Shown piece by piece: positions 1,892-58,050 of a DNA stretch of 64,000 bases. Both the position numbers and the translations under genes were made by a program. Source of the DNA: an uncultured bacterium (GTDB lineage Bacteria; Omnitrophota; Omnitrophia; Omnitrophales; Abzuiibacteriaceae); assembly GCA_964387845.1 (NCBI GenBank), contig CAYLXA010000010.1:32001-96000 (forward strand), read 5' to 3'. Each line of letters begins with the position of its first letter. Position 1 is the stretch's first letter. Below the pieces are notes generated by a model, which saw only the letters and a list, made by a program, of their open reading frames with translations, did not search any database and was not told the origin of the DNA.

Positions 1892-4800
1892 TTAGGCCGC
1901 TGTTAATTGGGCCCAAGCTGCGCGAAGTTCAGAACGTAAAGATTCGGCGATTTGGTCGACGCCAAAGCGTGTGGTCAATTGATCGGGTGATTCCAGGCGA
2001 GATTCAAACTGAACATTTCGGAGTTCAGAGCGCAATTGATCCGCAAAATGCTCGTCTTTACCTTCCACACCATAAAGCACGAATTTAATATTATTTCCGG
2101 TGATTCCTTTGAGAACGGTTGTCGCATTTGTTCGTGTCACAATGTTCACAGAGTGGTTTGCATTATCATCTCTGAAGAAATGATTTTTCAAGAACGATGC
2201 CTGCATTTGTGTGCCGCCGAAGATAACAACAGGCCCTGATTTTCTCATGACCGTTGCTCCGGCATACGCAATCGGCAGATTTTCCAACATGCCCGGTGCG
2301 ACACCATAAACAATGATTGTTTGATTATCATCGGTTTCAATTGCTTCGCTTTGTCCAGCTGTTAAAGAAACTGCTTCTTGAATTGAAGAATGAGGCAAAG
2401 TCGCATACGCTTCTTCAAATTGATTCGCCGAATTTGCCGCCCGGCCCTTAATTTCCGGCGCAATAACACTTTCCCAAGTTAAAGATTCAAATGAAACGTC
2501 AGATATATTATTTTCCTGATTTATAACGCGTAACTCGGACGAAGGCGGGATTACCAGCTTCGCCAAAGCAGCGCTTTTCGGGTCAGAAAAGCGCAATTTC
2601 GATCGACTTGAACGCCTCCTTTTTTCGCGACTAACACCTGTCTCTGTCTTTAAACGGCGCTGATGGCCACCTCTCGGAAAAACTTTTTTATTATAGGTGG
2701 GCGGCTCTTTTGTCCTAGAAAGTTTTCTATCTGGCCTTGGCTTGCCGCGATGGCTAAGCGCTCCGTAGTTTTGCCAATCATCAAGAACTCCGACTTTCGA
2801 ACCGCGGCGTCCTTGCACAAATTTGTAAATATTGCCCTTGCCATCAATATAAACAAATCTCAAGTCCCATCCATTTATAACTCTATAAACACGATCTGGA
2901 AGGCCATCTCCATCCAATTCAATCAATCTCCATTTGTGCCGGCTGTTTTCCTGAACATATACTTCAATTCTGCCAAATATTTGATGATTAAAATGATGGT
3001 AACCAATCGCTTTAAGCGGCTCCCATTGTCCATATTCATCAGGCTGATTATTCTTGACCCAAACTTCATCTGCAAAGAATTTTTCCCGCAAATTGACAAG
3101 CCTCAGATTTCCTGTGAAACCTGATTCAATAGTGCGATTGGTTTGATAGGCAGCCTGGGCAATCCATGCCATAATTACCTTTGCAATTTTTTGTTTGGAC
3201 CATTTATGATAGTAGTTAGCTGAGAAATTATCGAATGGCTTGAATTGACTTGTGATCAGTTTGTTTGAATCGAGATAAAAGCCTACAGAACCTGTACTTT
3301 CATATCCGTAACCCTCATCAAAACCGACTAGAATTTGATAATTTTGTCTACCTGCGCGAACAATCTGCAACAATACCGGATCTCGCGGAGAATAAGGATT
3401 ATTTAGTTTAACGGTATATGTTTTCCATTTTGGATTATCAAAATTTGGAATAAAATCTGCGTTCGACTTCGCGCGCAATTCGGACTTTGCGTCATCGGGA
3501 CGCGAATGATTGGCCATAGGTGCTTTTTCTACAATTTTATTATCACTATTTTCTATATTGACAGGGCCCCGTTTATTTGATATAAGAAAGTCCTCTTCGC
3601 GCACAAACTGAAAAGGAGAATTAAGAATGGTAGAACGTGAATTCACCGCAAGAGAAGTCGGTGCGCTTGTTGAATCTTTCCGGAATGACATTTCCGCCAT
3701 TGCAGAAGGCGTTAGCGGGTTGGCTGTCCGAATGGATCGGGTAGAAGCCAGACTCGCAGTGGTAGAGGTTAAATTAACGTCTGTTGAAGACGCTGTTCGC
3801 GTGGCGGTTCCCAACCACGAATCCCGCATCACCAAACTAGAATCCAAAGTTTTCGGCCGCTGATTATCTTTGCGCAGCTCGGACTTCAGAGAGGCGATTC
3901 CAAAAAACAATGCCTGGCCCTGTTCATTTTTAATTGTTTTCATCACTTGCAGACCACCATCAATAAACTTTTGAAAAATGGTTTCTGGCATTCGATGGTC
4001 TGCCCTGATTCGGCCCGTTGGACTATCCCAAGCTCCCTCAAGCTGATTATAAAAAGTTGTGGCAAAAATTCCTTTTGGTTTAAGAATACGCCTAATGCTT
4101 CGCGCGGCCCGGCTGGCCCGCTCAGTAGACCAGATTTCGATTCCAGGCTTCAATTGAAGAATGGGCATCCCCTCTTCCCTGACATAATCCCACACTGCTT
4201 CATCATCTAAATTACGGTAATGTTGCTTTGTTTCAGCGTGATTGGTAATCAATGCCCAATATAAAACCGAAGAAGCAATGATTAAATCAAATTGCTGGTC
4301 AGCAAATTGACTTAAATCCAAAATATCTGCCTGAACCGCACTCGCCCCGAACCGTTCTTTCGCAAATTGAACCGCATTCTCGTCGATATCAGCCACAATA
4401 ACATCAGCCCCTTTTTGCCGAAGCCATTCAAGGATACTTCCGTCTCTGGCAGTTCCAATTTCAAGCACCCGCTTGCCTTTCCAATAATCCTTTTTCAAAC
4501 TGTCGATTTCTCTCAATCCATGCAAAATGAGTGGTGCTGTACCGCTAGAAATCATTACATCTTCTTCGCCGCGCAGCTCGGCTCTGGCTTTCCGATTAAT
4601 ATCTGACCCGGGCACTTCATTGTGAGCCGGAGCGGACTTCGCGGCGCCTTGGTTCTCTTGCAAATCAATCGATGACATGAAAATATCCCGCCGCGATGTG
4701 ACATAGCCGGCAACATGCATGGTAGACCCTTCGACCGAAAGAGCGAGCGGCAAGTAGTCTTTGGGAAAGTGAAGCAGGCCATTTTCAAATTGCGTTTGAT

Positions 4801-7800
4801 CAATTTGATTTGAGCGGCGGTCAAGTGCAACAATCGCTGAGCCCACTTCAGGATCTTCCCTATTTAACCGATGTGGTGCAACATGCAGGTATGCGGTATT
4901 TCCAAAAATAGAGTTCGGCCAATCTTGCGTAAAAAGTTGATAGGGTTTTTGATTGATCGTCACTTCTCCTAATAAATTGCCCGCTTGATAAACAAGCTCT
5001 CCTGTCTTGATATCCACAACACCTATACCGCTCAAAGGCGCATGCGAATCAAGAATTAAATGATCCTGATTCGAGCGTAAATATCTCACATATTGAAATA
5101 ATTTCGCATTACGTTCATAAACACCTTCTTTTAGTTTGTCAGTACGCAAATGACCGCTGACAGGATCCAAGGCATAAACTTTAGAGGAGCCCAATCCTGT
5201 GAAAAATAAAACGCCTTGAGTGAAGGTGATAAGCGGCGTTGAAACTATTTCATCGGGAAATACTTGCTTCAAATCGAGAACGCCTTTTTCAAATTTGGCA
5301 TGATCTGGCTTTCCGTCACTCATCCGAAACGCGTGAATATAAGCCTGGCCTTTCCGGGCTCTGTCATCAACCGGATGGACATCTGTCTTTCGATAATAAG
5401 CAGCATACAAAGTTTGTCCATCTTCGCTCACGGCCAACGAGTTAATCCGTGCTTCCGGGTCAATCTTTTTAACCTCGTCCGACAAATTTAAACGTCCGTT
5501 CGACCACTTTTCAGACATTAATGCTTTGCGATCTAAATCAACTGCTAAAATGTCACCCGTGAACGAAGTCAAAATGTAAGCCGCATTTCCTCTGGCCACC
5601 ATTTCACGAGGCATGTCCTGAGACGAGATATGAAAGAATCTCTCATTATTTTGCCGCAACTCGGAGCGGGTTTCGGGCTTCGCTTCCATTAGTTTTTTAA
5701 TTTGAGCGCGTGCTTCTGCAATCATTTGATCCGTAATTTCACCCTGCTCTTTGCCGAGCGCCCCCAAGATTTTCGAATCTAAATTGCTTTTTTGGCTGAG
5801 TTCTAAACTGTCATAACCGATGTCTTTTTTCAATTGAACGATCTTTTTATAATTAGAAAAGGTGCGAAGAAAATTAACAACCGGATCCAGCGAGACATGC
5901 TGCCCATCGTCAGTTGCATAAGATCCCAGCAAATCCAGAGTGGTTGTTGCAATCATCAATTCAATTGCCTGGTTAAATTGATCTTCGCCGCGGATGCCTG
6001 CCTGCTCAAATTCCTGCCTTAATTTCTCCAATTGTTGAGCACGATGAATCGAAAACGCAAAAATGTGATGTTTAATGATTAATTTCAAAAGCGCATTGCT
6101 TGAAACGTCCATTTCACCGAAGTGAATATGATTGTCACTTAACACGCGAAATGATTCGAGTTCATGGCCCGGAAATGAATGGTCTCCATTCTCTTTGAAC
6201 TGCATTTTGGTTTTCTTGCCGATATCATGAAGCACGATAAATGCTTCCAATATCGCGCGGTCTTTTGCATTCCAATCCTTAATCAGATTGATCGCATCTT
6301 TGGGCGCTGTAGTGTTTCGGTCAATTTGATTGAGTGCCGAGAGAATGGCTTGTAAATGGTCCTGAAGTTTAGCATTCTGGCCGCCTTCCCTATGAAACAG
6401 GCTGTGATAATGAGGCGTTTCCAAAAAATCCGCATATTGATCCGGAATGCCAGATAACTGTTTCACCAATTCATCCAATGCTGAAGCCGGCCCATACTGG
6501 CGCAGCTCGGAGCGCTGTTCTTTTATCCATTGCACCAAACGCCGATAGTCAGTAACGCGAAGCGACATGCGGGAATTTCCGGGATTCGGCGCTATGATAA
6601 ACTGGTCGGCGGTTCCTCGAACCTTTTGGTACACAAAGACGAGAAACATACCGTAAAACCCCTGTGATTCCGGAAGGCCCCGGGCAACCCAATCCGCTTC
6701 AAGAATTGACCTGAGGACATTTGCCTTGATGGTCAACTCGTCCGGTTCCTTGTTTGCATCTAATTGTGCGATGACGGATTGAAAATATTGCAGAACTACC
6801 GCGTTTCTCCGTTGACTTTGAAGATCATTCCCCAATCCTTCAAAAAGTTTTTGCGTAAAGCGCTGCGCATTACCCATTTGATTTAAATCACGGACCAATG
6901 CCCGATATTCGCGCCGGTAAGCAAGCCATTCGTCTTCCAAATGCATATCAACGGAGCGCACAACCTTCTTAAATGCTTCCGGACTTGTTATCAATGGCTC
7001 CATGTCTGATTTGCCATGCAATTGCTTAACAAAATCAATCAGATATTTCATGCCCTCATCTGCTTCTCTGGCCAATGCGGCATTGATCAAGTGCGTACCT
7101 TCATGGATCATGACATATTTAATAATCAGAGGTGGAAAATGAAGCGCGAAGTCACGATTGATAGTCACATGAGTCACGCTTCCGTCTAATGAAGTTTTTA
7201 TACGTGCATACGAATGCCTCTGCAAAGAGCTTAATAAAGTGTCATCGAGAACGGGATTTTTTTTAAATGCCTCGATAAATTTTAATGCTGTTTTTTGATC
7301 GTCTAGGTTTGAAATTTCGGAAGCAATTTTTTCAAGGCGGTCCACAACCGCTTGAATTTCAGGGAGAAATTCGGGAGTTCTGATCCACCGCAAGATAGGC
7401 CATGCAGCAAATAAAGCGGTTGTTCCTGCACCGATTATTATTTGCCTGCGGCTTGGCAGCCAAAATTTCTTAGCAGGCTCTTCGCTTTTTACTCCCTGAC
7501 GCCGCTCCTTATTTTTTCGTCCGTTCTCACTTGCGCGCAGCTCGGCGCGGGAATTTCCGCTTGGAAGCTTGATGTTAAATTCTGCGGCTGCGTGGGCCAG
7601 CGCACGGTCGCGGTGCTCTCCATACATCAAAGCTTCCCGATGATTGTTTAGGCCTTTTTTCTTCCGAATTCGCTTTGCTTTATGCACAGAAGCCCTGGTT
7701 GAGTACTTCAAAGAAAGCGGCGCTGCCGGAAGCTGAATGCCGAACCGTTTCGCAGCATTGTAAAGCGCCCTGTCCCGATGCTTGCCTCGGGTTAACTCGC

Positions 7801-10800
7801 GGGCATGACTTTTCCATTTCTTCTTCTCGCGTTTTTTTAACTCCCTGCGAACAGATCCTTCGGTTGGATACTCAAAGGGCACACCTCTTTTTCTTAATTC
7901 GGAACGATGATTAGAAACATGAACTTTTGAGCGAACGGGAAGCTGCTCTGATAAAACCGCTTCGAGCATTTGATCTTTAATCCACCAATGAATCGGGCCA
8001 TTTTGTTTTGTCCAATCACGAATCGCATAACCCACTTCCTTTTGAGCTCGAATAAATAAACTTTCCATATTCCCATTACCATTTTGTGCCCGCGCGATCT
8101 GCTCGGCGAGACCTCGATAAATTCTGGCCGGCTCGAACTGATTGCGCCCATTAGAAGATTGATTTTTCTGAAACGTCGAAACCGCTTCCTCAATGCCGAT
8201 ATGTGTCAACGCATTCTTGGCATTAAAAGATGCGGCGATTCGATCTATTTGCCTTTTCATTTTTCTAAAATATTTCTTCCACGAAACAAAAGCCGGTTTT
8301 TCTCCGGCGCGCCGGATATCGAGCCCCAGCAAGATGCGATTTTGAATCAATTCTCCTTCTGGAATTTGATCTAAATAAAGGCCGTATCGCCCCTCAAAAT
8401 TCTTTTCGTATTCAATTAATTCATCGCGCCAATCTTCAAGTTGTTTGGCATCAACGGCACCGATTAAATTTAGTTCATAAATCAGATGAAGAGCGCGGCC
8501 TGCAAGGCCCAACCACCTGACGGCGTGAAGTAATTCGGAAGATTGGGTGTGTTTTTTCGCTTTATTGAGCGAGCTTCGGATCTGAATTTTCAGAATTCTG
8601 GATTTTCTTTGGCGCCTGTCAAATTCTTCAAACTCATCTTGGCTCATAGTTGGCTCAATAATTAGTTTGGCATTTTTAAATAACTGCTTGAGCGCTCGAT
8701 CTTGATGCAAACCCCTCTCATCCGTCCATTGTTGCCATGTCTGCTCGGAGGATTTTGTCGGTGAAAGCGGCTTTCTATCCCGTCCGGCTTTCGTTATTTT
8801 AAGGTTTCCGGTCTCAGCCCAATAACCCAGCCGTTTTGCTTCAAGTTGAATCAGATATCGCTCGGTTCCCTCAAGCGGACCCGGAACAAATTTTTGAACA
8901 CCAACTAAACCACGGTCCGTCAGATAAGCACTATAAACAAAATCAACCAAATGGCCTTTTCGATCGGTCTTTGGATTGGTGCTATACAAATCGATCCGCT
9001 TTGTAAAAGTCCGGCCATCTTGCTTTTCTTGAACATTGCGAAACACCATGAAAAATCTTCGCGGCTTTTCCGGAGTACCTACGCCCGCCCACTTAGGCCG
9101 GAGCGGTATGAAAAACCTTGTGTTTTTTGGCTTTAAAAATATTCCTGTTTGATGGCGGTTATGGTTGTGGCTATGCGTTATGGTTTTTGGCTCAATGGGA
9201 AGCGGTTCCTCTCCCGTCTTGATCCACTGTTGTATGCGTCTTTGAAATTCTTCTTCATCTTTTAGAAATTGCTTGGTTTCCAAATCCACGTAAAACACGA
9301 CCTGATGCTCCGGTTTATTCGAAACTTTTCCGCGTGCGATTCTCCTCACCCGCCAATAAACATTCTGCTTGAATGAGAAAACGGTAATTTCTAGGTCATC
9401 CCGATTTGAAAAATATTGTGAGGGCAGATAGAGCCGGCGCATGTTTTTTGCTTTTGGTAAGGGGAAAAACACGGTATTGGCATATTTGCCTTTTCGGACA
9501 TGTTTTAAAACAGCCTCTTTCAAAATTCTAACGGCAGGAGGGCCGGATTCGCGTTGAAAAGTTAAATGAAAAAGTTCCTTGCGGACCTGTTCAAACTGAT
9601 CAGGAAAAATAATTCCTTGCTTAGGTTGAAAACCGGTTAACGCATCAAATTCGAGCGTTCCCACTGCAGGCCTGAAAGGAAGTAAATGAACCTGCATTTG
9701 CGGACGGCGTTTGTCATCCGCGGAATCCCGGGTCCATATGACGCGCGGTTCTCCGGTCGGATATTGAAAAAGAGCCCACTTAACCGGCACTTTTGCTTCA
9801 TGCAATTGGCCGTTTCGAAGATAAGAAAAGGATGTAATGAAAGGCGGTCGTCTTTTTTGTAGTCGCTGAAAAATACTATCCTGGTATGCATGAAGGCGCC
9901 GCGGGATCATAAAGCCGGAGGGTTGCGCCCGTTGGCCCATTAAAAAATCCCGTAAAAGCTGAGAACGCGAGCTATCGCGAACTTTGTTTGTGCGAAAATG
10001 GTCGGCCAATTCCATTTCCCGAATCAAAAACCGGTAACTCTCCTGAGGATCCACTTGAATTCCCAAACCTGCTTCGCCTCCGGTTGTGTTACCAATTTTC
10101 TGAGTTTGTGATGAAACATAAGAAATAAAACGGCCTTCCCCTGCCGCGGCCAATAATTTCTGTTCATCCCAATTGACCATGAATAAGCGCGGATCATCCG
10201 TTTTGAGGAGCGCTGAATGGCTTTCCGGTGACAGAAGCCAAGCACGCTCCAAAAGATCTGCCCGATCTAATAGTGCCGCTGTTGAAATCCGGCCAAGGCG
10301 AATAAAATCTGAAACAGTTATCTGATGCGCAAATAACTGACTCTCACGATATTGGCGTTCTTCATTCGAAAGCGAAGCCAGATAAGGAAGCGCGTCTGTT
10401 TGAGAAAGATCTTCTTCCTTTGAAATACGGCGCGACGAAGATGGGCGTGGCTTCGGAACGATTTGCATTGTTTCGCTATTTTGACGCAGCTCGGAGCGGG
10501 ATTGAGACTGTTTTTGGCGAATTAATTTCACGGCTTCACGAACGCTAACACCCTTGCCTCGCATATCCATGTAATCAAATGCTAAATCTGCGTTTCCGTT
10601 GCTTAATTTCCAGGCAATAAACGCATTAATCACCGCATACGGATACATCCATCCTTGTCCTTTGTCTGTTAATGGATTCGGATCAAAGACACCGAAATTT
10701 TGCCGAGTCATTCCAATGGCATTTTCTTCTGCATATTCGTAAGCTTTATCGCCGGCTTCCCTGAGACTTCGGTCCAATTCTGCAGGCAATTGATCAACAT

Positions 10801-13800
10801 ACATCATCATTACTTCCCCGATACTGGTACCTTTATTGAAATTTCCTTTTACATATTTTTCAAAGAAAGATTGTTTTAATATATTGAGATCCCCTTTACT
10901 TTTTTGCAAGATTCTTAATGCGGCATAACCTTCGGCAAGTAACGCATCGTTATCAATATATTTCAAACCAGATCTAAGTTTTTTTCCAAATTTATGCGTC
11001 AATTCGTGAGCAATTAGAAGACGGAGTCCCCACCCAGAGCCCATGCGTTTTAATTCGTTAGGATTAATTCGAATTCCATAATCAAATCCCGTGGCAAGCG
11101 TGTCGGGAAGCATTGCCACAGCAGTCGGTTTATTTTTAATCCAGATTGTTACGCCGACAGCAGCCAGACCGATAGCAGCAAAACCAAATAAAAAATCACG
11201 ACGTGTTAGTTTTTGTTTCGATTTAGTTTTATTTTTTCTTTCTAAGAAATATTTGAGGGAAAATATTGAGAAAATTCCGCTCAACAATGATAAGAAAATG
11301 GATAAGAATGTTAGGTATGCTTTTGGCTGCTCGATTGCAACCCCTATTGAGTCTGTTAAACGATTAATCAATTCTTCTTTTTGTTGCACAGATAAATCAA
11401 CGGCGTAACGATTTATAAAAAACTCAACTTCTTCCCGTACAATTTTTCTCTGTTCTTGGTCTAATTGAAAAACAAACGGTTTGTTCGATTCGCGCAACTC
11501 GGAACGGGATTTTCTCAAATCTATGTCAAGTAAATGCTGCAAAGCTAATCTCACCTTCTCTTCTTCCATGCCATCCAACTCTTGAAGTTGCCGGTCTGTA
11601 AATGCTTGGATCAAGCGTGCCATGGCTATGGACCGTGTAGAAAATTGATGCAGGTAATCATCAACGATCTGTTTTTGTTTTGCGCTTACTTGTTCCATCG
11701 AAATTTCGTTACGAGGAGGAAGGTTAAATGGATTTGGCGAACTATCATTTTGATTTAAATCATCGTAAGCTTGCCACAGAGCTCCGTTCTTACCGTAAAA
11801 ATATTTGCCCCACAATTGCATTCTGATATCTGAAACTTCCTTCCATTCTTTGTCGGCATCATTGATATCGGTTTCAAAAACGTATGGCGCTTTTTCCTCA
11901 TTAATTCCAATCGACGCCTCAAGCGGACCAAAAATAAGCGCCCCAGATTCAGAATCGACAGTGTTAAGGCCTTCTTGAACATAGCCATGCAGGGTATGAT
12001 TCATGAGCCAATTGAAATAATCATGCACAACTTGATTAAATCTCTTCGCACTCATTGATCTTCCATTCCAATGCTCTGCGAGAAGCCTGTCAAAAGCGCT
12101 TTTCTCTCTCGACGCGCCATTTTCTATAGGTTCTGAACGCAGCTCGGCCCTTGAGCCGAGCGGGCTCAAGGACGGCTTCGGCATCGCAGCTCGTTGCGGC
12201 AAAGTCCGAGCCGCCCTTTGTTGCAGCAGTTCCGACTTCGAATCGGCTGGAGTCGAAGTACGGACAGTCCTCAACTCCGCTCGAGCTGAGGACTCAGCGT
12301 GGACGGGGTTTAAATTAGGTGCTTTTTTTACAATTTTATTATCGCTATTTTTTATATTGACAAAGCCCTGATTGTTTGATATAAAAAAAGTCCCTTCGCG
12401 CGCAAACTTTAGGAAAGAAGAGAAAATACGATGACCAAAATTCCAAAGCCCGGCTCCGAATATTCTGAAGAGCGTGAATTCCGCGTCATTTTGGAGCATC
12501 TTGAAAGCCAGTTCCGTACTTTTGGTGAGGGGATGAACCGGATGGAACAAAAACTTCAAAAACTGGACGGCATTGATCGCAGACTGACTAGCGTAGAAGA
12601 AGATGTTGGATTGATTAAGGTCAATCTTAAACAAATTAATATTGATCTTAGAGAAGTCAGAGGTGATATCATGGTTCTGAAAACTGACGTTAGAGTCTTG
12701 AAAAGCGCTTTCAAACCATTCACCGCCCAAGTTTCCGATCACGAGCACCGGATTTCCGCTCTTGAGCGTTCCCGTTAAACGCAATTCCGATCGACTTAAA
12801 GGTAGCTGCAATACCTTCGTGATATGATTTTCAACCCATGGCCATAATTCTTTTGTGATAGATTTGAAATAATCGGAAGAAACTTGATACGGGCGCGCGC
12901 CAAACTGGATCTGATTGGCCAAATCAACCAAATCTATTAAGTGCCGCGCATCGGCTCCGATGAGATAGAAAAGAAATAAGTATTCCTGGGCAATTGTCAA
13001 ACCACCTTTATTTTGCCGACTAATGACCAGGAATGCGTGATATCTCAAAGATTCTTCCAAGATCACCTCTGGATTCCCTTTTGAATCAAACAAGCGAGCT
13101 TGTTTGATCCTTTGATTGAACAATGCCGTGTTGCGCTTTTGCTTTAATGCGTTTTCTATAAACAACGGGTGATACAAATCTTGATTGTATGCCCAGTGCA
13201 GAAAACGGAATTGGCTGAAACTCTCGTAAAATTCGGATGAAATATTTTCAGCAGCTAATCTTGAGATATCGGATAAATGTTTAACTGCAAAATTGGGAAT
13301 TCCTGATTTTTGAGGCCACCTTCTTTCTCCTAACGGAATTTTCTGAAATTCTTGCATAACACCTTGTAATTCTGAAACATTTTTCGGCATCCAATTTTTT
13401 GATTTTGACAAATAATGAACCCCATAAGCTTCCCTGACAATGACAGATGCCAAGTTTTCAACAAAATAATCCTCGGCATATGGAAATTGGTTAATCAATT
13501 TCACGGAATCAAAAAAAGATTTCACGTTGATTTCTAAATCGATTTTTCCGTTCTCATCAATTGTTTTTTGAAAATGAATCCCCAAATTAGCTGCTTCCTG
13601 CGGCAGCAGTTTAGCCTGTTTGACTAATTCGGAGTAATTCTTAAGAATGTCAGTATTCGGATATCCTTTGGCAATTAACCAGTCGATTGTTTTTTGAATA
13701 GCGTTTTGAACACTTGCTAAATCGGCACGCGAAAGTTGAATCTCGTCCATCAGGGATTTATTTTGTTTAAAAGATTTTCGAACGGCGTAAATCGTACCTG

Positions 13801-14236
13801 CTATCAATGAACCGCTGACGGTTAAGCCTAGCCCATATTTAATAACGGTTCTTCGTGATAAATCCGTTCCTCCTTTTGTCTCTTTTGTTTTATCTTTTTC
13901 TTTTGTTCTCAGCTCGGACTTCTTTTGAGTATTTCGTATCTCGTGAAACGTATCTCGGTGCAGCGGCTCAGCGTGGTTTGCTTCGGGATTCGTGACCCGC
14001 GTATCGTGTTTCGCAACCGATTCACGATTCACGAACGACGATTCACTGGATTGATTTTGCACCAAACTTCTCAACTCGGAAAGTGCGGCGGGAGAATTGG
14101 CGGTGAGGCGCGGGACGTTCAGCGACGGAACGGAGGAAGCATAGGAATTAGGAATGGACGGAGATAGTCCGATGGTGTTCTGGATTGAAAAGCAGAAGAT
14201 GATCAGAATCGCGGTAATTTTAAGGTATTGCTTCAA
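1892..14236 (-). CDS. Giant (4114 aa) modular membrane-anchored polyprotein. It has an N-terminal signal peptide, several TM helices, a SAM-methyltransferase-like module, an HD-domain module, two HExxH zincin-like motifs and a propeller-like region, all separated by a recurring [RK][SA]ELR motif
   Basis: The reading frame stays open for 12,345 nt, which cannot happen by chance. The start is probably TTG at 14236, preceded by AGGAAA. The N-terminus MKQYLKITAILIIFCFSIQNTIG is signal-peptide-like. Motifs seen: VLEIGTARDG...DLIIASSVLYW (class I SAM-MTase), FIVLHDIGKK...HEL...KHH (HD), AHELTHKFG and IHEGTHLIN (HExxH). Seventeen [S/A]ELR motifs are spread through the protein. Confidence 0.75.
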   Translation of the reverse strand: MKQYLKITAILIIFCFSIQNTIGLSPSIPNSYASSVPSLNVPRLTANSPAALSELRSLVQNQSSESSFVNRESVAKHDTRVTNPEANHAEPLHRDTFHEIRNTQKKSELRTKEKDKTKETKGGTDLSRRTVIKYGLGLTVSGSLIAGTIYAVRKSFKQNKSLMDEIQLSRADLASVQNAIQKTIDWLIAKGYPNTDILKNYSELVKQAKLLPQEAANLGIHFQKTIDENGKIDLEINVKSFFDSVKLINQFPYAEDYFVENLASVIVREAYGVHYLSKSKNWMPKNVSELQGVMQEFQKIPLGERRWPQKSGIPNFAVKHLSDISRLAAENISSEFYESFSQFRFLHWAYNQDLYHPLFIENALKQKRNTALFNQRIKQARLFDSKGNPEVILEESLRYHAFLVISRQNKGGLTIAQEYLFLFYLIGADARHLIDLVDLANQIQFGARPYQVSSDYFKSITKELWPWVENHITKVLQLPLSRSELRLTGTLKSGNPVLVIGNLGGEWFESAFQDSNVSFQNHDITSDFSKININLFKIDLNQSNIFFYASQSAINAVQFLKFLFHPVHPLTKSTELAFKMLQNDAEFTLFRIFGAGLWNFGHRIFSSFLKFAREGTFFISNNQGFVNIKNSDNKIVKKAPNLNPVHAESSARAELRTVRTSTPADSKSELLQQRAARTLPQRAAMPKPSLSPLGSRAELRSEPIENGASREKSAFDRLLAEHWNGRSMSAKRFNQVVHDYFNWLMNHTLHGYVQEGLNTVDSESGALIFGPLEASIGINEEKAPYVFETDINDADKEWKEVSDIRMQLWGKYFYGKNGALWQAYDDLNQNDSSPNPFNLPPRNEISMEQVSAKQKQIVDDYLHQFSTRSIAMARLIQAFTDRQLQELDGMEEEKVRLALQHLLDIDLRKSRSELRESNKPFVFQLDQEQRKIVREEVEFFINRYAVDLSVQQKEELINRLTDSIGVAIEQPKAYLTFLSIFLSLLSGIFSIFSLKYFLERKNKTKSKQKLTRRDFLFGFAAIGLAAVGVTIWIKNKPTAVAMLPDTLATGFDYGIRINPNELKRMGSGWGLRLLIAHELTHKFGKKLRSGLKYIDNDALLAEGYAALRILQKSKGDLNILKQSFFEKYVKGNFNKGTSIGEVMMMYVDQLPAELDRSLREAGDKAYEYAEENAIGMTRQNFGVFDPNPLTDKGQGWMYPYAVINAFIAWKLSNGNADLAFDYMDMRGKGVSVREAVKLIRQKQSQSRSELRQNSETMQIVPKPRPSSSRRISKEEDLSQTDALPYLASLSNEERQYRESQLFAHQITVSDFIRLGRISTAALLDRADLLERAWLLSPESHSALLKTDDPRLFMVNWDEQKLLAAAGEGRFISYVSSQTQKIGNTTGGEAGLGIQVDPQESYRFLIREMELADHFRTNKVRDSSRSQLLRDFLMGQRAQPSGFMIPRRLHAYQDSIFQRLQKRRPPFITSFSYLRNGQLHEAKVPVKWALFQYPTGEPRVIWTRDSADDKRRPQMQVHLLPFRPAVGTLEFDALTGFQPKQGIIFPDQFEQVRKELFHLTFQRESGPPAVRILKEAVLKHVRKGKYANTVFFPLPKAKNMRRLYLPSQYFSNRDDLEITVFSFKQNVYWRVRRIARGKVSNKPEHQVVFYVDLETKQFLKDEEEFQRRIQQWIKTGEEPLPIEPKTITHSHNHNRHQTGIFLKPKNTRFFIPLRPKWAGVGTPEKPRRFFMVFRNVQEKQDGRTFTKRIDLYSTNPKTDRKGHLVDFVYSAYLTDRGLVGVQKFVPGPLEGTERYLIQLEAKRLGYWAETGNLKITKAGRDRKPLSPTKSSEQTWQQWTDERGLHQDRALKQLFKNAKLIIEPTMSQDEFEEFDRRQRKSRILKIQIRSSLNKAKKHTQSSELLHAVRWLGLAGRALHLIYELNLIGAVDAKQLEDWRDELIEYEKNFEGRYGLYLDQIPEGELIQNRILLGLDIRRAGEKPAFVSWKKYFRKMKRQIDRIAASFNAKNALTHIGIEEAVSTFQKNQSSNGRNQFEPARIYRGLAEQIARAQNGNGNMESLFIRAQKEVGYAIRDWTKQNGPIHWWIKDQMLEAVLSEQLPVRSKVHVSNHRSELRKRGVPFEYPTEGSVRRELKKREKKKWKSHARELTRGKHRDRALYNAAKRFGIQLPAAPLSLKYSTRASVHKAKRIRKKKGLNNHREALMYGEHRDRALAHAAAEFNIKLPSGNSRAELRASENGRKNKERRQGVKSEEPAKKFWLPSRRQIIIGAGTTALFAAWPILRWIRTPEFLPEIQAVVDRLEKIASEISNLDDQKTALKFIEAFKKNPVLDDTLLSSLQRHSYARIKTSLDGSVTHVTINRDFALHFPPLIIKYVMIHEGTHLINAALAREADEGMKYLIDFVKQLHGKSDMEPLITSPEAFKKVVRSVDMHLEDEWLAYRREYRALVRDLNQMGNAQRFTQKLFEGLGNDLQSQRRNAVVLQYFQSVIAQLDANKEPDELTIKANVLRSILEADWVARGLPESQGFYGMFLVFVYQKVRGTADQFIIAPNPGNSRMSLRVTDYRRLVQWIKEQRSELRQYGPASALDELVKQLSGIPDQYADFLETPHYHSLFHREGGQNAKLQDHLQAILSALNQIDRNTTAPKDAINLIKDWNAKDRAILEAFIVLHDIGKKTKMQFKENGDHSFPGHELESFRVLSDNHIHFGEMDVSSNALLKLIIKHHIFAFSIHRAQQLEKLRQEFEQAGIRGEDQFNQAIELMIATTTLDLLGSYATDDGQHVSLDPVVNFLRTFSNYKKIVQLKKDIGYDSLELSQKSNLDSKILGALGKEQGEITDQMIAEARAQIKKLMEAKPETRSELRQNNERFFHISSQDMPREMVARGNAAYILTSFTGDILAVDLDRKALMSEKWSNGRLNLSDEVKKIDPEARINSLAVSEDGQTLYAAYYRKTDVHPVDDRARKGQAYIHAFRMSDGKPDHAKFEKGVLDLKQVFPDEIVSTPLITFTQGVLFFTGLGSSKVYALDPVSGHLRTDKLKEGVYERNAKLFQYVRYLRSNQDHLILDSHAPLSGIGVVDIKTGELVYQAGNLLGEVTINQKPYQLFTQDWPNSIFGNTAYLHVAPHRLNREDPEVGSAIVALDRRSNQIDQTQFENGLLHFPKDYLPLALSVEGSTMHVAGYVTSRRDIFMSSIDLQENQGAAKSAPAHNEVPGSDINRKARAELRGEEDVMISSGTAPLILHGLREIDSLKKDYWKGKRVLEIGTARDGSILEWLRQKGADVIVADIDENAVQFAKERFGASAVQADILDLSQFADQQFDLIIASSVLYWALITNHAETKQHYRNLDDEAVWDYVREEGMPILQLKPGIEIWSTERASRAARSIRRILKPKGIFATTFYNQLEGAWDSPTGRIRADHRMPETIFQKFIDGGLQVMKTIKNEQGQALFFGIASLKSELRKDNQRPKTLDSSLVMRDSWLGTATRTASSTDVNLTSTTASLASTRSIRTANPLTPSAMAEMSFRKDSTSAPTSLAVNSRSTILNSPFQFVREEDFLISNKRGPVNIENSDNKIVEKAPMANHSRPDDAKSELRAKSNADFIPNFDNPKWKTYTVKLNNPYSPRDPVLLQIVRAGRQNYQILVGFDEGYGYESTGSVGFYLDSNKLITSQFKPFDNFSANYYHKWSKQKIAKVIMAWIAQAAYQTNRTIESGFTGNLRLVNLREKFFADEVWVKNNQPDEYGQWEPLKAIGYHHFNHQIFGRIEVYVQENSRHKWRLIELDGDGLPDRVYRVINGWDLRFVYIDGKGNIYKFVQGRRGSKVGVLDDWQNYGALSHRGKPRPDRKLSRTKEPPTYNKKVFPRGGHQRRLKTETGVSREKRRRSSRSKLRFSDPKSAALAKLVIPPSSELRVINQENNISDVSFESLTWESVIAPEIKGRAANSANQFEEAYATLPHSSIQEAVSLTAGQSEAIETDDNQTIIVYGVAPGMLENLPIAYAGATVMRKSGPVVIFGGTQMQASFLKNHFFRDDNANHSVNIVTRTNATTVLKGITGNNIKFVLYGVEGKDEHFADQLRSELRNVQFESRLESPDQLTTRFGVDQIAESLRSELRAAWAQLTAA
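3558..3586 (+). promoter_or_regulatory. Consensus sigma70 promoter (TTGACA, 17-nt spacer, TATAAG) driving the nested antisense small ORF A
   Basis: TTGACA lies at 3558-3563, the spacer gggccccgtttatttga is 17 nt, and TATAAG lies at 3581-3586. An AAGGAG RBS sits at 3612-3617 and the ATG at 3627. An AT-rich UP-like tract lies upstream. Confidence 0.55.
3627..3863 (+). CDS. Small ORF A (78 aa) nested antisense inside the giant gene; paralog of ORF B
   Basis: It has a perfect promoter and RBS. The protein MVEREFTAREVGALVESFRNDISAIAEGVSG...LTSVEDAV...NHESRITKLESKVFGR shares EREF, ESFR, LTSVE(D/E)D/A and HE.RI..LE with ORF B. The stop codon abuts an RSELR-encoding motif of the giant gene. Confidence 0.5.
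   Translation: MVEREFTAREVGALVESFRNDISAIAEGVSGLAVRMDRVEARLAVVEVKLTSVEDAVRVAVPNHESRITKLESKVFGR
4215..4540 (-). other. SAM-dependent methyltransferase-like module within the giant ORF
   Basis: Encodes GKRVLEIGTARDGSILEWLRQKGADVIVADIDENAVQFAKERFG...FDLIIASSVLYW, matching Rossmann motif I and post-I of class I methyltransferases. Confidence 0.6.
5900..6420 (-). other. HD-domain (metal-dependent phosphohydrolase) module within the giant ORF
   Basis: The H...HD...H...H pattern is present as LQDHLQA, FIVLHDIGKK, FPGHELES and KHHIF. Confidence 0.55.
7091..7115 (-). other. HExxH motif (IHEGTHLIN), candidate zincin metallopeptidase site in the giant ORF
   Basis: The motif is read directly from the translation. 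No further family assignment is possible without an HMM search. Confidence 0.4.
10988..11020 (-). other. HExxH motif (LLIAHELTHKFGKK), candidate zincin metallopeptidase site in the giant ORF
   Basis: The motif is read directly from the translation and resembles ImmA/IrrE- or SprT-like minimal zincins. Confidence 0.4.
12357..12385 (+). promoter_or_regulatory. Consensus sigma70 promoter (TTGACA, 17-nt spacer, TATAAA) driving the nested antisense small ORF B
   Basis: TTGACA lies at 12357-12362, the 17-nt spacer is aagccctgattgtttga, and TATAAA lies at 12380-12385. An AGGAAAGAAGAG RBS precedes the ATG at 12431. About 36 of 40 nt upstream are identical to copy A (tacaattttattatc[a/g]ctatttt[c/t]tatattgaca). 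Confidence 0.55.
12431..12778 (+). CDS. Small ORF B (115 aa) nested antisense inside the giant gene; paralog of ORF A
   Basis: The protein is MTKIPKPGSEYSEEREFRVILEHLESQFRTFGEGMNRMEQKL...LTSVEEDV...DHEHRISALERSR. It is coiled-coil-like and homologous to ORF A. The stop codon abuts an SELR-encoding motif on the opposite strand. Confidence 0.5.
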   Translation: MTKIPKPGSEYSEEREFRVILEHLESQFRTFGEGMNRMEQKLQKLDGIDRRLTSVEEDVGLIKVNLKQINIDLREVRGDIMVLKTDVRVLKSAFKPFTAQVSDHEHRISALERSR

Positions 14237-14333: not shown

Positions 14334-14609
14334 TTATCTGAAATCTTTATACTTATCATTCAGCGTTTTTTGGATATCTTTTACCTGCGCTTTTGCCTGC
14401 TCGCCCAACCCAATTTGGGTCTGAGTATAACCGCCGGTTAATTGATCAAACAGGCCTTGTGAGGCGGCCTGCTTTCCCTGCTTCGGATGTTTTTGTTCCT
14501 TCTTCCCGATCCACTGGTCTAAGTAGCCCATTTTCCCCGCGATTAAGAACATAATGATAATCAGCGCAATTAAAAGATTGATTAAATTGAACCCTTTTTC
14601 GTTTTTCAT
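14334..14609 (-). CDS. Small (91 aa) membrane or secreted protein with a prepilin-like N-terminal hydrophobic segment (atypical, Asn at +5)
   Basis: The internal start MKNEKGFNLINLLIALIIIMFLIAG is preceded by AAAAGGAGA. The longer 154-aa ORF version overlaps the upstream gene and was rejected. Confidence 0.45.
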   Translation of the reverse strand: MKNEKGFNLINLLIALIIIMFLIAGKMGYLDQWIGKKEQKHPKQGKQAASQGLFDQLTGGYTQTQIGLGEQAKAQVKDIQKTLNDKYKDFR

Positions 14610-20488: not shown

Positions 20489-21580
20489 TTATCGAATTAG
20501 GTATTCGGCGATTTGAACGGCATTGAGCGCGGCGCCTTTGCGGAGCTGATCACCCGCCACAAACATCGCGAGGCCGTTTGGATTGGACATGTCCTCGCGA
20601 ATCCGGCCGACCAAAACATCATCGCCGCCTGAAGCGTCAAAAGGCATCGGGAAGAGATTTTTTTCACGGTCGTCAACCAGCTTCACGCCTTTTGCTCTTT
20701 TTAGAATTTCACGCGCTTCATCCGGCGACATTTTCTTGGAGAATTCGAGAACGATGGATTCCGCATGCGCACGAAAAACCGGTACACGGATACAAGTCGG
20801 GCAAATTTGAATATCCGGAGCGTTCAAAATCTTCCGGGATTCTTCAACCACTTTATTTTCTTCTTCGTTGTAGCCGTTCGCAGCAACCTGTGTGTTGTGC
20901 GAAAAAAGATTAAACGCGATTTGATGCATGAATGCTTCACGCTTGAGCGCCTTTCCCTGCCGGACTTCTTTTGCGGCTGATTCGATATTTTCTAAAATAT
21001 CCGAATTTTTCTGAGACTTTACGCGCTGCAAGAACTCCTCGGTCTGCGTAAAAAGTTCGCGCATCGCATTTCCGCCCGCGCCGCTCGTGGATTGATAAGT
21101 CGACACCAAAATGCGCTTCACGGGATTTGCTTTGTGAAGCGGCGCTACGGCCATCAACATAATGATCGCTGAGCAATTGGGATTTGCGATGATTTGGCTT
21201 TTATATTTCTCAATATCGGAGCCGTTAATTTCGGGAACCACGAGCGGGATCTTGGGATCCATGCGGAAAGCACTCGTATTGTCCACAATCATACAGCCGG
21301 CTTTAATCGCATGAGGCGAAAATTGTTTGCTGACAGTTTTTCCGGGACTTGAAAGGATGATATCAATGCCTTCGTAACCTTTTGAATCCATCGGCAGTTC
21401 TTCGGCGGCGACTTTTTTGCCGTTAAAGTCGAGAGACACGCCTTTCGATTTGGAAGAACCGAAAATCCGCAAGTTATCGACCGGAAATTTGCGCTCTTCA
21501 AGAATGTGGCGAAGTTCCGAACCCACCGCGCCACGCGCACCGACAATGGCGACATTGTATTTTGATTTTTTCTTTAACAT
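20489..21580 (-). CDS. asd: Aspartate-semialdehyde dehydrogenase
   Basis: NVAIVGARGAVGSE (NAD-binding) and the NPNCSAIIM active-site Cys region are present. The ATG at 21580 (MLKKKSKYNVAIVGA) is preceded by GGAG. Confidence 0.9.
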   Translation of the reverse strand: MLKKKSKYNVAIVGARGAVGSELRHILEERKFPVDNLRIFGSSKSKGVSLDFNGKKVAAEELPMDSKGYEGIDIILSSPGKTVSKQFSPHAIKAGCMIVDNTSAFRMDPKIPLVVPEINGSDIEKYKSQIIANPNCSAIIMLMAVAPLHKANPVKRILVSTYQSTSGAGGNAMRELFTQTEEFLQRVKSQKNSDILENIESAAKEVRQGKALKREAFMHQIAFNLFSHNTQVAANGYNEEENKVVEESRKILNAPDIQICPTCIRVPVFRAHAESIVLEFSKKMSPDEAREILKRAKGVKLVDDREKNLFPMPFDASGGDDVLVGRIREDMSNPNGLAMFVAGDQLRKGAALNAVQIAEYLIR

Positions 21581-21592
21581 GATTTTAGAGCT

Positions 21593-21666
21593 CCAAGCTA
21601 CAAGCTGCATGCTACAAGCTGTACAATCTTCAAAAACTTGAAGCCTGAAGCTTGTAGCCTGTGGCG
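21593..21666. repeat. Palindromic intergenic repeat (CAAGCTACAAGCTGCA ... CTTGAAGCCTGAAGCTTGTAGCCTG) between leuB and asd; same family as 53138..53210
   Basis: The arms gctacaagctg and cagcttgtagc are inverted. The 3' arm is nearly identical to the reverse complement of gctacaagctgcaagcttcaggcttcaag at 53141-53170. Confidence 0.6.
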
Positions 21667-21667
21667 A

Positions 21668-22741
21668 TTATTTTGTTATTCGTTCACAAACCAATTTTCC
21701 CATTTCCTGACAACCAACCAGTTTCATTCCTTCACTAAAAATATCTGCGGTGCGGTAACCGTCGTCTAAAACTTTCTTCACAGCCGCTTCAACGTGAAGT
21801 GCCAAATCATTCAAGTCAAATGAATATCGGAGCATCATCGCGCACGACAAAATCGTCGCGAGCGGATTGGCTTTGTCTTTACCGGCAATATCCGGCGCAG
21901 AGCCATGAACCGGCTCATAAAGCGCGTGATGATCACCGATGCTGGCTGACGCGAGCATGCCGATTGAGCCGGTGAGCATGGATGCTTCGTCGCTCAAAAT
22001 ATCGCCGAAGAGATTCGTGGTCACGATCACGTCGAATTGTTTGGGATCGCGGACAAGCTGCATCGCGCAATTGTCCACATACATGTGTGACAACTGGACA
22101 TCCGGAAACCGTTTTCCGAGCTGCATGACGACTTTGCGCCAAAGTGCGCTTGATTCTAAAACGTTTGCTTTGTCGACGGAACAAACTTTGCGTTTGCGTT
22201 TGCGCGCAAGCTGAAATGCTCTTTGCGCAATCCGTTCAATCTCCGAAGTGGAATATACTTCGGTATTGAATCCTTTTTCCGAACCGTCTGAATTTTTCTC
22301 GATTCCTTTCGGCTTTCCAAAATAAATGCCGCCTGTGAGTTCGCGCACAACCATGATATCGGTTCCGCGCACCACATCCGGCTTCAAAGTAGAAGCAGAA
22401 ATCAGGCTGTCGTAAATCATCGCCGGGCGGAGATTGGCGTAAAGCCCGAGTCCGCTGCGGATACCGAGAAGGCCCGCTTCGGGCTTTTTATCGTGTTCCA
22501 AATTTTCCCATTTAGGGCCGCCGACCGCACCGAGCAAAACGGCGTCTAAATCTTTCGCCACTTTTAAAGTTTCATCCGGCAAAGGAATTCCAAACTGATC
22601 GATCGCAACACCGCCGATCAAAGCTTCCTTGAATTCGAAGTTCAGGTGAAACGTTGAAGCCACATGCTTCAAAATTTTCACGCCAACTTGTACGACTTCT
22701 GGCCCGATTCCATCGCCCGGGAGAGCAAGCACTTTATACAT
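21668..22741 (-). CDS. leuB: 3-isopropylmalate dehydrogenase
   Basis: [17 protein letters not shown]... and the [20 protein letters not shown] signature identify it. Confidence 0.95.
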
Positions 22742-22742: not shown

Positions 22743-22772
22743 GGGGTAAGGATTAAGGGGTAAGGGATAAGC
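22743..22772. repeat. Left inverted repeat (GGGGTAAGGATTAAGGGGTAAGGGATAAG) flanking the four-helix-bundle gene
   Basis: It is the reverse complement partner of 23176-23212 (cttaatccttacccctgaatccttaatccttaatcc). Confidence 0.6.
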
Positions 22773-23121
22773 TTTTGCGAAGTCCGGAAAGCATTCTTCC
22801 GATTTCGTTACAGTAGTTAATAAGCATTTCATAATGTTCATGATCAACATAATTTAAATCCCTGCTTAAAAGTAATAAATATTTGGTTTCTTCAAGTGAA
22901 GAATTCGACAAATTCAGAAAATGCAAATAATCTTTTGTACTTTTTCGTTTTTGTCCTTCTACAATGTTTGTGGCAATCGAAACTGTGCTTCTTCGTATTT
23001 GAGAAATAATTCCAAATTTTTCATCATTTGGAAAACGTTTCGTTAACTTATAAATTTCTAAAATTAAAGTGTGAGATTTTTGCCAAACTTTTAAATCTTG
23101 AAATGTTTCTATCCTATACAT
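22753..23121 (-). CDS. Four-helix-bundle protein (23S rRNA intervening-sequence protein family, TIGR02436/PF05635)
   Basis: The product [56 protein letters not shown] matches this family very closely. Confidence 0.85.
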
Positions 23122-34123: not shown

Positions 34124-34516
34124 TTAGGCAGATTTTCTGGTCGTCGCGAATCCTAAAAACCGGGAAACCAAAGTCGTTTCCACAGAAAATGCGGAATTGC
34201 GCCGAAGAGATTCAAAACTAGCGTCGGCCTTGGCTTGTACGTCACGATTCAGCATATCGCTCAAAGCCGGCAGCATATCGTCCGCACGCGCCTCAACCGA
34301 AATTGATTTTGTCCGAATCTCCTCAATTTCATACTTCGCTGATTCAGGCTGTAATGCTTCGGTTGTAATATTGATGCCGGCCGAATGAGAAGCGCCCGGC
34401 AAAATAATCTGCGGATTGAATACTTCGGCTTCGTGAATCGGCTGAGCAAACATAGGCTGGCCGAATATAAAGACACATACCAATAAAATCTTAAGGAACT
34501 TAATCGGGTTTTTCAT
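34124..34516 (-). CDS. Hypothetical small secreted protein
   Basis: Signal peptide MKNPIKFLKILLVCVFIFGQPMFA. No recognisable family. Confidence 0.4.
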   Translation of the reverse strand: MKNPIKFLKILLVCVFIFGQPMFAQPIHEAEVFNPQIILPGASHSAGINITTEALQPESAKYEIEEIRTKSISVEARADDMLPALSDMLNRDVQAKADASFESLRRNSAFSVETTLVSRFLGFATTRKSA

Positions 34517-40167: not shown

Positions 40168-40185
40168 TAACACTCTTTCCTCTTG

Positions 40186-40215
40186 GATTTCCCTGAGTTC
40201 GGAAGCTGACTGCCA
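40186..40215 (-). promoter_or_regulatory. Conserved 5'-leader element of tpsA (TCAGCTTCCGAACTCAGGGAAATCC on the mRNA), copy 1
   Basis: Near-identical to 45449-45477 upstream of the second tpsA. It lies 20-50 nt upstream of the start codon. Confidence 0.45.
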
Positions 40216-45425: not shown

Positions 45426-45448
45426 GGAACACCTCTATCTTTAAATTG

Positions 45449-54469: not shown

Positions 54470-54478
54470 TAGAAAAAT

Positions 54479-55677: not shown

Positions 55678-55688
55678 TTTTTCTCTCC

Positions 55689-56279: not shown

Positions 56280-56280
56280 A

Positions 56281-58049: not shown

Positions 58050-58050
58050 A

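Follow-up and report, generated by a model that had tools for sequence, protein, structure and literature searches.

A giant bacterial gene punctuated by a short peptide motif, with the predicted organisation of a cassette polyprotein

The window analysed here is a 64-kb stretch of DNA from an uncultured bacterium (positions 32,001 to 96,000 of contig CAYLXA010000010.1). Its minus strand carries a giant open reading frame (ORF), called W, which encodes 4114 amino acids and is divided by 17 copies of a short motif, [S/A]ELR, into 18 segments (modules W0-W17). Sequence comparisons give a little better than an even chance that W is a polyprotein of highly variable cassettes, cut at the motif by a protease whose gene lies elsewhere. 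The frame is open throughout and the motif is maintained as a peptide. Cassette borders coincide with the motif, cargo is replaced from allele to allele, and shared modules are under purifying selection. Giants of distant lineages are also punctuated, and small genes are nested within the array.

A giant frame punctuated by a conserved peptide

W begins with TTG and has zero internal stops. A ribosome-binding site of the AGGA type lies 7-8 nt 5' of the TTG, and a promoter-like site is also present upstream. The identical 4114-aa product was called in an independent Logan assembly (SRR15237813), and the sequence is also found at NCBI on a 101-kb contig. An earlier reading of the window, made from the sequence alone, had described one uninterrupted 12.3-kb ORF at this place, and the second assembly agrees.

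The motif occurs as SELR at 13 sites and as AELR at four. All 17 had been listed in the sequence-only reading, with coordinates correct to within a few bases. Given the composition of W, 0.14 SELR and 0.28 [SA]ELR are expected, and the Poisson tail for the observed number is ~1e-24 by our arithmetic, in agreement with the earlier statement that the motif is far above chance. Arginine or lysine precedes the motif at 15/17 sites, and 17/17 ELR tripeptides in W fall within [S/A]ELR sites. Only 6 [SA]ELR were found outside W in a six-frame translation of the window.

The 17 sites are coded by 15 different 12-mers. Leucine of the tag is encoded by TTG, CTG, TTA, CTC or CTT and arginine by CGN and AGR, while in relatives serine is encoded by both TCN and AGY. 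The 14-mer CGCAGCTCGGAGCG, previously thought to be shared by most copies, is present only twice, at 6501 and 10485. Because synonymous codons vary from site to site, constraint acts on the peptide and not on the DNA, as had been proposed. Clearly, the punctuation motif is selected at the peptide level.

A logo over 43 sites has the form x-[A/S/L]-[R/K]-[S/A]-E-L-R. Residues are conserved from -3 to +2 relative to E, and no conservation was observed past the final R. Conservation restricted to the N-terminal side is the pattern of a protease site. The tag is located in polar, probably flexible segments. The last motif of W ends 9 residues before the C-terminus (…AAWAQLTAA).

BLAST detected no similarity between modules apart from that of W3 to W13. 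The description of W as a set of distinct modules was largely right. GC content at third codon positions is 0.33-0.44 in the large modules vs 0.49-0.58 in the flanking housekeeping genes, which fits an accessory, imported origin of this DNA.

Constant ends, exchanged cargo and nested genes

Three giants occupy the same locus in different genomes, and their gene order is DUF819, a pilin-like gene, the giant and leuC. Allele B (3335 aa) lies at 17993-28000 of L082, a Joint Genome Institute metagenome contig from a close relative. Allele P0002 (2294 aa) lies on L096, from a third sample, and was found when all 1.84 billion representatives were searched by HMMER with W aa 2579-3778 as the query. 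The proteins encoded next to the giant are 92% (LeuC) and 69-86% (others) identical between L082 and the window. L082 also carries a second giant, A, elsewhere on the contig; its full length is 4159 aa (P0019), of which 3662 aa are within L082. There are 13 [S/A]ELR sites in this part of A and 11 in B, and GELR and PELR variants besides. Synteny is broken between window 20489-22741 and L082 1-11263. Upstream of truA the window has asd and leuB, and the relative has giant A in their place.

Similarity between W and B is limited to W aa 1-71, aa 72-486 and aa 3909-4114, and the ~3400 aa between are unrelated. W aa 72-486 is 79% identical to B, and the similarity stops exactly at LPLSRSELR. The leader of W with the first motif (aa 1-57) is kept in P0002 (98%) and B (60%), and W15-W17 are 66-94% identical to the corresponding parts of B and P0002. 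P0002 thus has the leader and tail of W with different cargo. Single cassettes correspond from motif to motif. W2 equals B4 (376 vs 376 aa, 83% identity), W8 equals A3 of the different giant in L082 (64% identity), and W13 equals P0002 1001-1133. Shuffling of module order in homologues, which had been put forward as a test, is observed, as the alleles and the comparisons with A, B and P0002 show swapped cargo. A separate observation concerns W aa 72-110 (~13907-14023) and B aa 584-621, where AKHDTR of W aligns with QPELR of B; it looks like a decayed motif at the point where a ~515-aa cassette of B is missing from W.

At the nucleotide level, blastn aligned W with L096 in four stretches only. 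These are the left flank with the first 57 codons (73.6%), a 380-nt cassette at window ~3503-3883 (98.9%), 70 nt inside W15 (75.7%), and the right end with leuC (92.3%). At least one breakpoint is inside module W15 and not at a motif. As these alignments indicate, the two loci are a mosaic that formed as cassettes replaced one another, and one or more of these exchanges is very recent. The 3503-3883 cassette, 98.9% identical while its flanks are 74-92% identical, appears mobile or recently converted.

The ratio of non-synonymous to synonymous substitution rates (dN/dS) is 0.17 for W2/B4, where dS is 0.51 vs 1.0-1.8 in neighbouring genes, and 0.15 for the C-terminal block W15-W17. These values indicate purifying selection on the shared cassettes as read in the frame of the giant. 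The pilin-like gene (prepilin-type N-terminus KGFNLINLL…) keeps its position upstream of the giant in L082, L095 and L096. The leader, the C-terminal block and this gene are the sole constant parts, and they possibly serve targeting or export. No giant was present beside leuC in the nearest GTDB genomes by LeuC (Kiritimatiellae metagenome-assembled genomes (MAGs), 73-75%; Pontiella, 68%).

The whole W protein was scanned with Pfam at E<=1 and with NCBIfam. Only methyltransferase, HD, TAT-signal and UPF0146 families were matched in Pfam. W12 matches Methyltransf_11 over the curated cut-off (3.8e-12, aa 3253-3397, window 4046-4480), which supports the earlier assignment. It is a class I S-adenosylmethionine (SAM) methyltransferase with a Rossmann-type SAM-binding core, and the methyltransferase was the sole match in a PDB sequence search of W. 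W10 had been read as an HD phosphohydrolase. Its Pfam HD score is below the cut-off (18.8 vs 22 bits, E 2e-3, aa 2657-2726) and its cas3_HD match is weak, but ~25 clear homologues retain the HD motifs (LHDIGK, HH). These homologues are modules in ~15 other giants and stand-alone proteins of 283-407 aa. W10 (282 aa) aligns with one of the latter, the 283-aa P0003, from near the first residue of P0003. Likewise the first 170 residues of W14 match, from the first residue of W14, the mature part of the stand-alone 264-aa P0026, which has a signal peptide. A short site therefore recurs at the borders of autonomous modules that resemble mature proteins, as is characteristic of a processed polyprotein.

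Two HExxH motifs are present in W as reported (HELTH, 10994-11008, in W6; HEGTH, 7091-7105, in W9) vs 0.16 expected, but no zincin family supported either of them in the Pfam scan. A signal-peptide-like N-terminal segment and internal hydrophobic segments were seen, in line with the signal peptide and transmembrane segments of the sequence-only reading. Those of W6 are at aa 975-993 and aa 1015-1033, the second one after TRRDFLF, and a weak twin-arginine-signal match covers aa 1009-1026. Some cassettes start with an export signal of their own. In A a lipoprotein-type signal begins 11 aa after SELR, and W2, B4 and W9 have RR-anchors. W11 had been described as propeller-like. A single-sequence AlphaFold model was all-beta with a predicted local distance difference test (pLDDT) value of 41, which is unusable, and the label is unconfirmed.

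The remaining cargo is largely orphan. W2 and the C-terminal block matched no family in relaxed Pfam scans, W7 had no family in the Pfam scan and no relative in a scan of species-representative genomes, and no homologue of W9 was found in a word-index search of aa 2234-2868. The last result, and the lack of matches in the same type of search with aa 1-1250, are weak negatives since the query's own entry was missed too. The database entry of W was recovered by exact look-up and by the full HMMER scan and was missed by the word index for two segments. Giant proteins may be systematically overlooked by this type of search. For annotation it matters that gene callers give these giants as single hypothetical proteins.

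Two modules of W are not what they seem. W13 (3473-3871) and W3 (12269-12778) are complete plus-strand gene cassettes, each bounded by motifs, a feature missed in the sequence-only reading, and each gene has its own consensus sigma-70 promoter. Both consist of an A/T-rich upstream stretch, TTGACA, 17 nt, TG-n-TATAA[G/A], a ribosome-binding site, ATG and a coiled-coil ORF. The 29-nt promoter segment has exactly two occurrences, in these two cassettes, vs an expectation of 0. In the frame of the giant the cassettes read as S/T/R-rich sequence with no plausible fold, and GFVNIKN and FLISN, peptides that seem to be conserved among the giants, come from reading the -35 and -10 boxes in reverse complement.

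For the 78-aa antisense ORF 34 homologues were found, 74-111 aa in length, and their alignment allowed AlphaFold to predict one long helix (pLDDT 92.6). The ORF is intact in L082, with 51% identity vs 42-44% for the frame of the giant, and it is also conserved in L096 and L097. The 115-aa antisense protein belongs to the same family (hidden Markov model E 1e-17). The small gene stands alone in an Omnitrophica MAG and on another contig, and in L087 it is on the same strand, downstream of a punctuated giant. It is antisense within punctuated frames at L082 10030-10275(-), L096 6015-6263(-) and L097 20602-20889(-) (in P0028), and also in L092 and L093/L094.

Punctuation was also found outside this locus. 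In the HMMER scan many other giants, 1500-7500 aa in length, also contained the HD module. R[SA]ExR occurs 11 times in P0009 (8 RAELR), 11 times in P0028 (10 RAEVR) and 10 times in P0011 (mostly RSENR), and the expectation for each is ~0.1-0.2. The L087 giant has RSE[V/M/I/A]R 12 times, a count for which no expectation was computed. Distant lineages retain R, S/A, E and the final R, and the fourth residue changes from Leu to V, I, M or N. Giants that share the HD or methyltransferase module of W and lack R[SA]ExR (P0012, P0007, P0004, P0031) have other enriched tags, one of which is SSP[AVLI]. These results suggest that the punctuation is lineage-specific, and differing tags are what co-evolving pairs of protease and site would give. 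The punctuated giants sit among chromosomal housekeeping genes and not in phage or plasmid contexts.

Other features of these giants were noted. Homology of the C-terminal domains of all giants was considered and rejected, as only the last residues (…AA) recur. Ends of the type …[Q/R/T]AA (LTAA, KQAA, QRAA, RQAA, LRAA) are found in P0001, P0002, B, P0007, P0011, P0015, P0028 and P0029, and resemble an ssrA-like or tail-specific-protease-like terminus. The N-terminal domain of other giants (IQDAH…GGFH), which is absent from W, was considered as TraB/Tiki-like and dropped because it had no Pfam support. Two genes upstream of the RAELR giant P0009 is a gene for a short, 547-aa FtsH-like protease of the AAA+/M41 type (L099 2713-4356), a single case.

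Proposed processing at the motif and its alternatives

We propose that a conserved leader (Sec-type signal peptide and first motif) and a C-terminal block of ~210 aa frame an exchangeable array. Among the cassettes would be a methyltransferase, an HD hydrolase, HExxH proteins anchored in the membrane and a large number of orphans, and each cassette would end in the consensus of the logo. The array would be translated as one polypeptide, and for that reason the 12.3-kb frame would be kept open; had it not been translated, stops should have accumulated in it. A sequence-specific endopeptidase, not itself a variable cassette, would cut at or beside the motif and free separate proteins. Cassettes would be gained, lost and swapped among strains and paralogous giants. 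Because only those that bring a site would survive, borders would coincide with the motif even though the motif DNA is not conserved. Since the pieces between sites would be released individually, pieces of junk could be tolerated, and two of these would be the read-through of the strongly promoted small antisense genes. Proteolysis, the scissile bond, the compartment, the identity of the protease and the purpose of the cargo are what we infer here from sequence.

The zincins of W had been suggested as the processing proteases. They are rejected in this role, since the close relatives P0002, A and B have the same punctuation but no HExxH, and P0011 and P0028 have none either. As there is also no cassette that every allele shares, the gene for the protease probably lies elsewhere.

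Several observations weigh against processing. Neither a product of cleavage nor the protease itself has been found. No protease-like part is conserved in cis, as HExxH is not shared by the alleles and W2 and the C-terminal block belong to no family. No obvious endopeptidase gene was found in the 64-kb window, where the sole peptidase-family Pfam matches (S33/S15/S9) are in one 258-aa alpha/beta-hydrolase ORF (33262-34038). Signal-like segments are not enriched after the motif (4/114 sites vs 2.6% at random positions). A Sec leader on cytoplasmic-type enzymes with internal transmembrane segments would be an awkward topology, and Pro follows 2 RAEVR sites of P0028, which is awkward for a cut after Arg. 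Finally, the tags of giants lacking R[SA]ExR were chosen post hoc, which inflates the ratios of observed to expected sites (D[NSKQ]AM[VMTI] 9 vs 0.01, [GSD][AKS]SLG 7 vs 0.13, GSEG 4 vs 0.06), although these were judged too large for noise.

We wondered whether the giant might instead remain whole, as a multi-enzyme or scaffold protein whose modules work tethered. The motif would then link domains, or be a site at which a partner protein docks or a kinase or methyltransferase modifies the chain. The want of any protease or cleavage evidence agrees with this, as do the polar, probably flexible segments around the motif and the presence of giant multidomain proteins in related phyla. Tethering is difficult to reconcile with modules that are unrelated whole proteins with stand-alone homologues, with cargo that is freely swapped between strains, or with two modules that are antisense read-through without a plausible fold. 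Some modules carry their own N-terminal export signals, and after the last motif nothing is left to link. For these reasons an uncleaved giant seems unlikely, and it is the strongest of the alternatives.

A site acting in DNA, for recombination or cassette integration as in integron attC or the VENN-encoding region of cdiA, would make the peptide a by-product. The sequence-only reading had offered the 14-mer as such a junction. DNA does move, as seen from the 98.9% cassette in genomes otherwise 74-92% alike, and cassette borders coincide with the motif. The sites themselves argue strongly against this origin. Their 15 distinct 12-mers cross codon families (Ser TCN/AGY, Arg CGN/AGR, Leu TTR/CTN) as well as synonymous positions, so that only the amino acids are kept, and distant lineages keep R-[S/A]-E-x-R while replacing the fourth residue. 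Furthermore no integrase is adjacent to W, and at least one breakpoint in the comparison with L096 is inside W15. We consider a DNA site very improbable.

The chance is just as slight that the chain is separated during translation, with nascent R[S/A]EΦR causing 2A-like bond skipping or release and re-initiation and no protease being needed. Conservation only on the nascent-chain side and the lack of a protease in cis are what this mechanism predicts. However, we know of no 2A-like co-translational separation in bacteria, the five-residue motif is much shorter than 2A signals, and chemically unrelated tags (DNAMV, ASLG, GSEG) are better suited to varied protease specificities. That W is an assembly artefact, or a decaying and unexpressed fusion of neighbouring genes, is scarcely credible even for a metagenome sequence in which most modules lack homologues, as a 12.3-kb open frame at 43% GC is not possible by chance, two assemblies gave the same 4114-aa product, homologous giants occupy the same locus in two other samples, and the shared modules are under purifying selection.

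Processing of W at the motif by a protease encoded elsewhere may be one instance of a wider, unrecognised mode of bacterial expression. It would operate in several lineages, at least some of them related to the Planctomycetes, Verrucomicrobia and Chlamydiae (PVC). Chromosomal cassette polyproteins would join dozens of unrelated proteins in one chain, the chains would be cut at lineage-specific tags (R[S/A]EΦR in W, tags like DNAMV, ASLG and GSEG elsewhere) by a dedicated, co-evolving protease, cargo would turn over rapidly between strains, and the nested antisense coiled-coil gene would act as a built-in regulator or partner. We advance this extension tentatively and rate it at somewhat less than an even chance.

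If processing occurs, W would be the first cellular bacterial polyprotein at viral scale, and a defined, portable cleavage tag together with a new specific protease would be usable as a tool. Two findings matter whether or not the chain is cleaved. The locus is a natural site of cassette exchange, with conserved ends and cargo that is almost wholly different between close genomes. The antisense genes lie inside a coding frame and are conserved over distant lineages, and few cases of functional sense/antisense overlap in bacteria are as clear.

The locus, the window and known systems

Features of the W locus. Coordinates are window positions.
Feature	Position	Strand	Description
Giant ORF W	1892..14236	-	4114 aa, 18 motif-delimited modules
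Signal-peptide-like leader MKQYLKITAILIIFCFSIQNTIGLS	14162..14236	-	N-terminus of W
Motif 1 LSELR	14069..14083	-	aa 52-56
Motif 2 KSELR	13907..13921	-	aa 106-110
Motif 3 RSELR	12779..12793	-	aa 482-486; similarity to allele B ends exactly here
Motif 4 RAELR	12269..12283	-	aa 652-656
Motif 5 RAELR	12137..12151	-	aa 696-700
Motif 6 RSELR	11492..11506	-	aa 911-915
Motif 7 RSELR	10484..10498	-	aa 1247-1251
Motif 8 RSELR	7892..7906	-	aa 2111-2115
Motif 9 RAELR	7535..7549	-	aa 2230-2234
Motif 10 RSELR	6500..6514	-	aa 2575-2579
Motif 11 RSELR	5654..5668	-	aa 2857-2861
Motif 12 RAELR	4571..4585	-	aa 3218-3222
Motif 13 KSELR	3872..3886	-	aa 3451-3455
Motif 14 KSELR	3473..3487	-	aa 3584-3588
Motif 15 SSELR	2528..2542	-	aa 3899-3903
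Motif 16 RSELR	2018..2032	-	aa 4069-4073
Motif 17 RSELR	1922..1936	-	aa 4101-4105
Module W2	12779..13906	-	376 aa; twin-arginine-like anchor SRRTVIKYGLGL
Module W3	12269..12778	-	Read-through of antisense gene cassette in the frame of the giant
Antisense promoter 2	12357..12385	+	TTGACA, 17 nt, TATAAA with TG extension; in DNA repeat shared with 3535-3563
Antisense small gene 2	12431..12778	+	115-aa coiled-coil protein (…DHEHRISALERSR)
Module W6	10484..11491	-	Two hydrophobic segments, then HELTH
Module W7	7892..10483	-	864 aa
Module W8	7535..7891	-	119 aa; internal duplication HRDRAL…
Module W9	6500..7534	-	SRRQIIIGAG… anchor, then HEGTH
Module W10	5654..6499	-	282 aa; candidate HD-type phosphohydrolase module
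Module W11	4571..5653	-	361 aa
Module W12	3872..4570	-	Class I SAM methyltransferase; Pfam core 4046-4480
Module W13	3473..3871	-	S/T/R-rich read-through of antisense cassette 1
Antisense promoter 1	3558..3586	+	TTGACA 3558-3563, 17 nt, TATAAG 3581-3586 with TG extension
AGGAG ribosome-binding site, antisense gene 1	3614-3618	+	
Antisense small gene 1	3627..3863	+	78 aa
Module W14	2528..3472	-	315 aa
Conserved C-terminal modules W15-W17	1895..2527	-	No Pfam family
Type-IV-pilin-like gene (…KGFNLINLLIALIII…)	14334..14609	-	91 aa, directly upstream of W

The neighbours of W are leuC, DUF819, an MR/MLE enzyme, an ABC transporter, truA, asd and leuB. A 23S-rRNA-intervening-sequence/bAvd-like four-helix-bundle gene (22753-23121(-)) has leuB and thiG on either side, and no reverse transcriptase was seen in the window. 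A two-partner-secretion locus (34969-47426(-)) encodes TpsB (45699-47426), TpsA-like proteins of 986 and 1752 aa, and a further protein of 567 aa with matches to Dictyostelium repeats and dockerin-like sequences. A cyclic di-GMP-I riboswitch (34676-34802(-); Rfam, 42.6 bits) separates the end of one TpsA-like gene from a 130-aa ORF (34124-34516). The 130-aa ORF has no family match and is next to the alpha/beta-hydrolase gene. The genes at 53481-63964(-) form a complete cluster for an aa3-type cytochrome c oxidase (COX1-3, CtaA, CtaB, SCO1, DUF420) with a 678-aa multi-haem cytochrome c, a notable find in a genome related to the Kiritimatiellia.

No account of such a system was found in a literature search that covered the motif strings, polyproteins of bacteria and giant genes, and the strings appeared only in alginate-lyase papers (PL7 family). 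The sequence-only reading had likened W to MARTX toxins of Vibrio and relatives. These are encoded by very large ORFs with a central array of unrelated effectors, which vary between strains through recombination and are freed by cuts between domains. The likeness holds for the way of working, namely mosaic, strain-variable cargo (three alleles at one locus) with cuts between modules. It does not extend to membership, as Pfam found no match in W to Peptidase_C80, the cysteine protease domain (CPD) that makes the cuts in MARTX, to the RTX-type, glycine-rich repeats of both MARTX ends or to any other repeat family, and no type I secretion genes are nearby. MARTX sites are loosely defined Leu-X bonds, whereas W has a conserved pentapeptide; the cargo of W looks like ordinary cytoplasmic enzymes, and nested antisense genes are not a MARTX feature. 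In polymorphic toxins (Rhs/CdiA) a trafficking and repeat region is conserved, a single toxin at the C-terminus varies beyond a demarcating motif, and an immunity gene is adjacent, whereas W varies in the middle and is conserved at the C-terminus. No Rhs, filamentous-haemagglutinin or PT-domain match was found in W with Pfam.

Viral polyproteins (picorna-, poty-, flavi- and nidoviruses) supply many proteins from one ORF. Their short sites, in which conservation is largely confined to the P side, differ between lineages, as does protease specificity. W differs from them as a cellular chromosomal gene with no recognisable cis protease and with cargo that is hypervariable between strains. Bacterial surface precursors such as RgpA, Kgp and HagA of P. 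gingivalis, where gingipains cut after Arg/Lys, and P97/P102 of Mycoplasma hyopneumoniae (S/T-X-F|X-D/E) are also cut at recurring short sites. These have few, related adhesin or protease domains in a fixed architecture, and W contains no match to such domains.

Polyvalent proteins of phages and conjugative elements combine 2-15 unrelated enzymatic domains, including methyltransferases, and processing of the chain has been ascribed, as a proposal, to zincin-like peptidases (Iyer et al. 2017, PMC5512222). They are phage- or plasmid-borne and delivered with DNA, whereas the giant described here lies between leuC and housekeeping genes in four genomes. Polyvalent proteins have a zincin-like hub domain; W has two bare HExxH motifs, which P0002, A, B, P0011 and P0028 lack, and no punctuation motif has been described in polyvalent proteins. 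W works like MARTX, polyvalent or viral polyproteins, yet it has no CPD/RTX, is not on a mobile element and has no cis protease, the features that define each.

Giant genes of the PVC-related Omnitrophota encode proteins of 10,000-147,000 aa that are rich in repeats, transmembrane segments and carbohydrate-binding-module/dockerin folds, and cleavage is suspected at cut points stated to be unknown (West-Roberts et al. 2023 preprint; 2026 complete-genome preprint). Neither preprint mentions punctuation, polyproteins or antisense genes. A link to this group is the small nested-gene family, which is also present in the Omnitrophica MAG. Cleavage of W at its motif would offer an answer to the question that giant genes pose in uncultivated bacteria, whether they encode one protein or many, and where the chain is cut.

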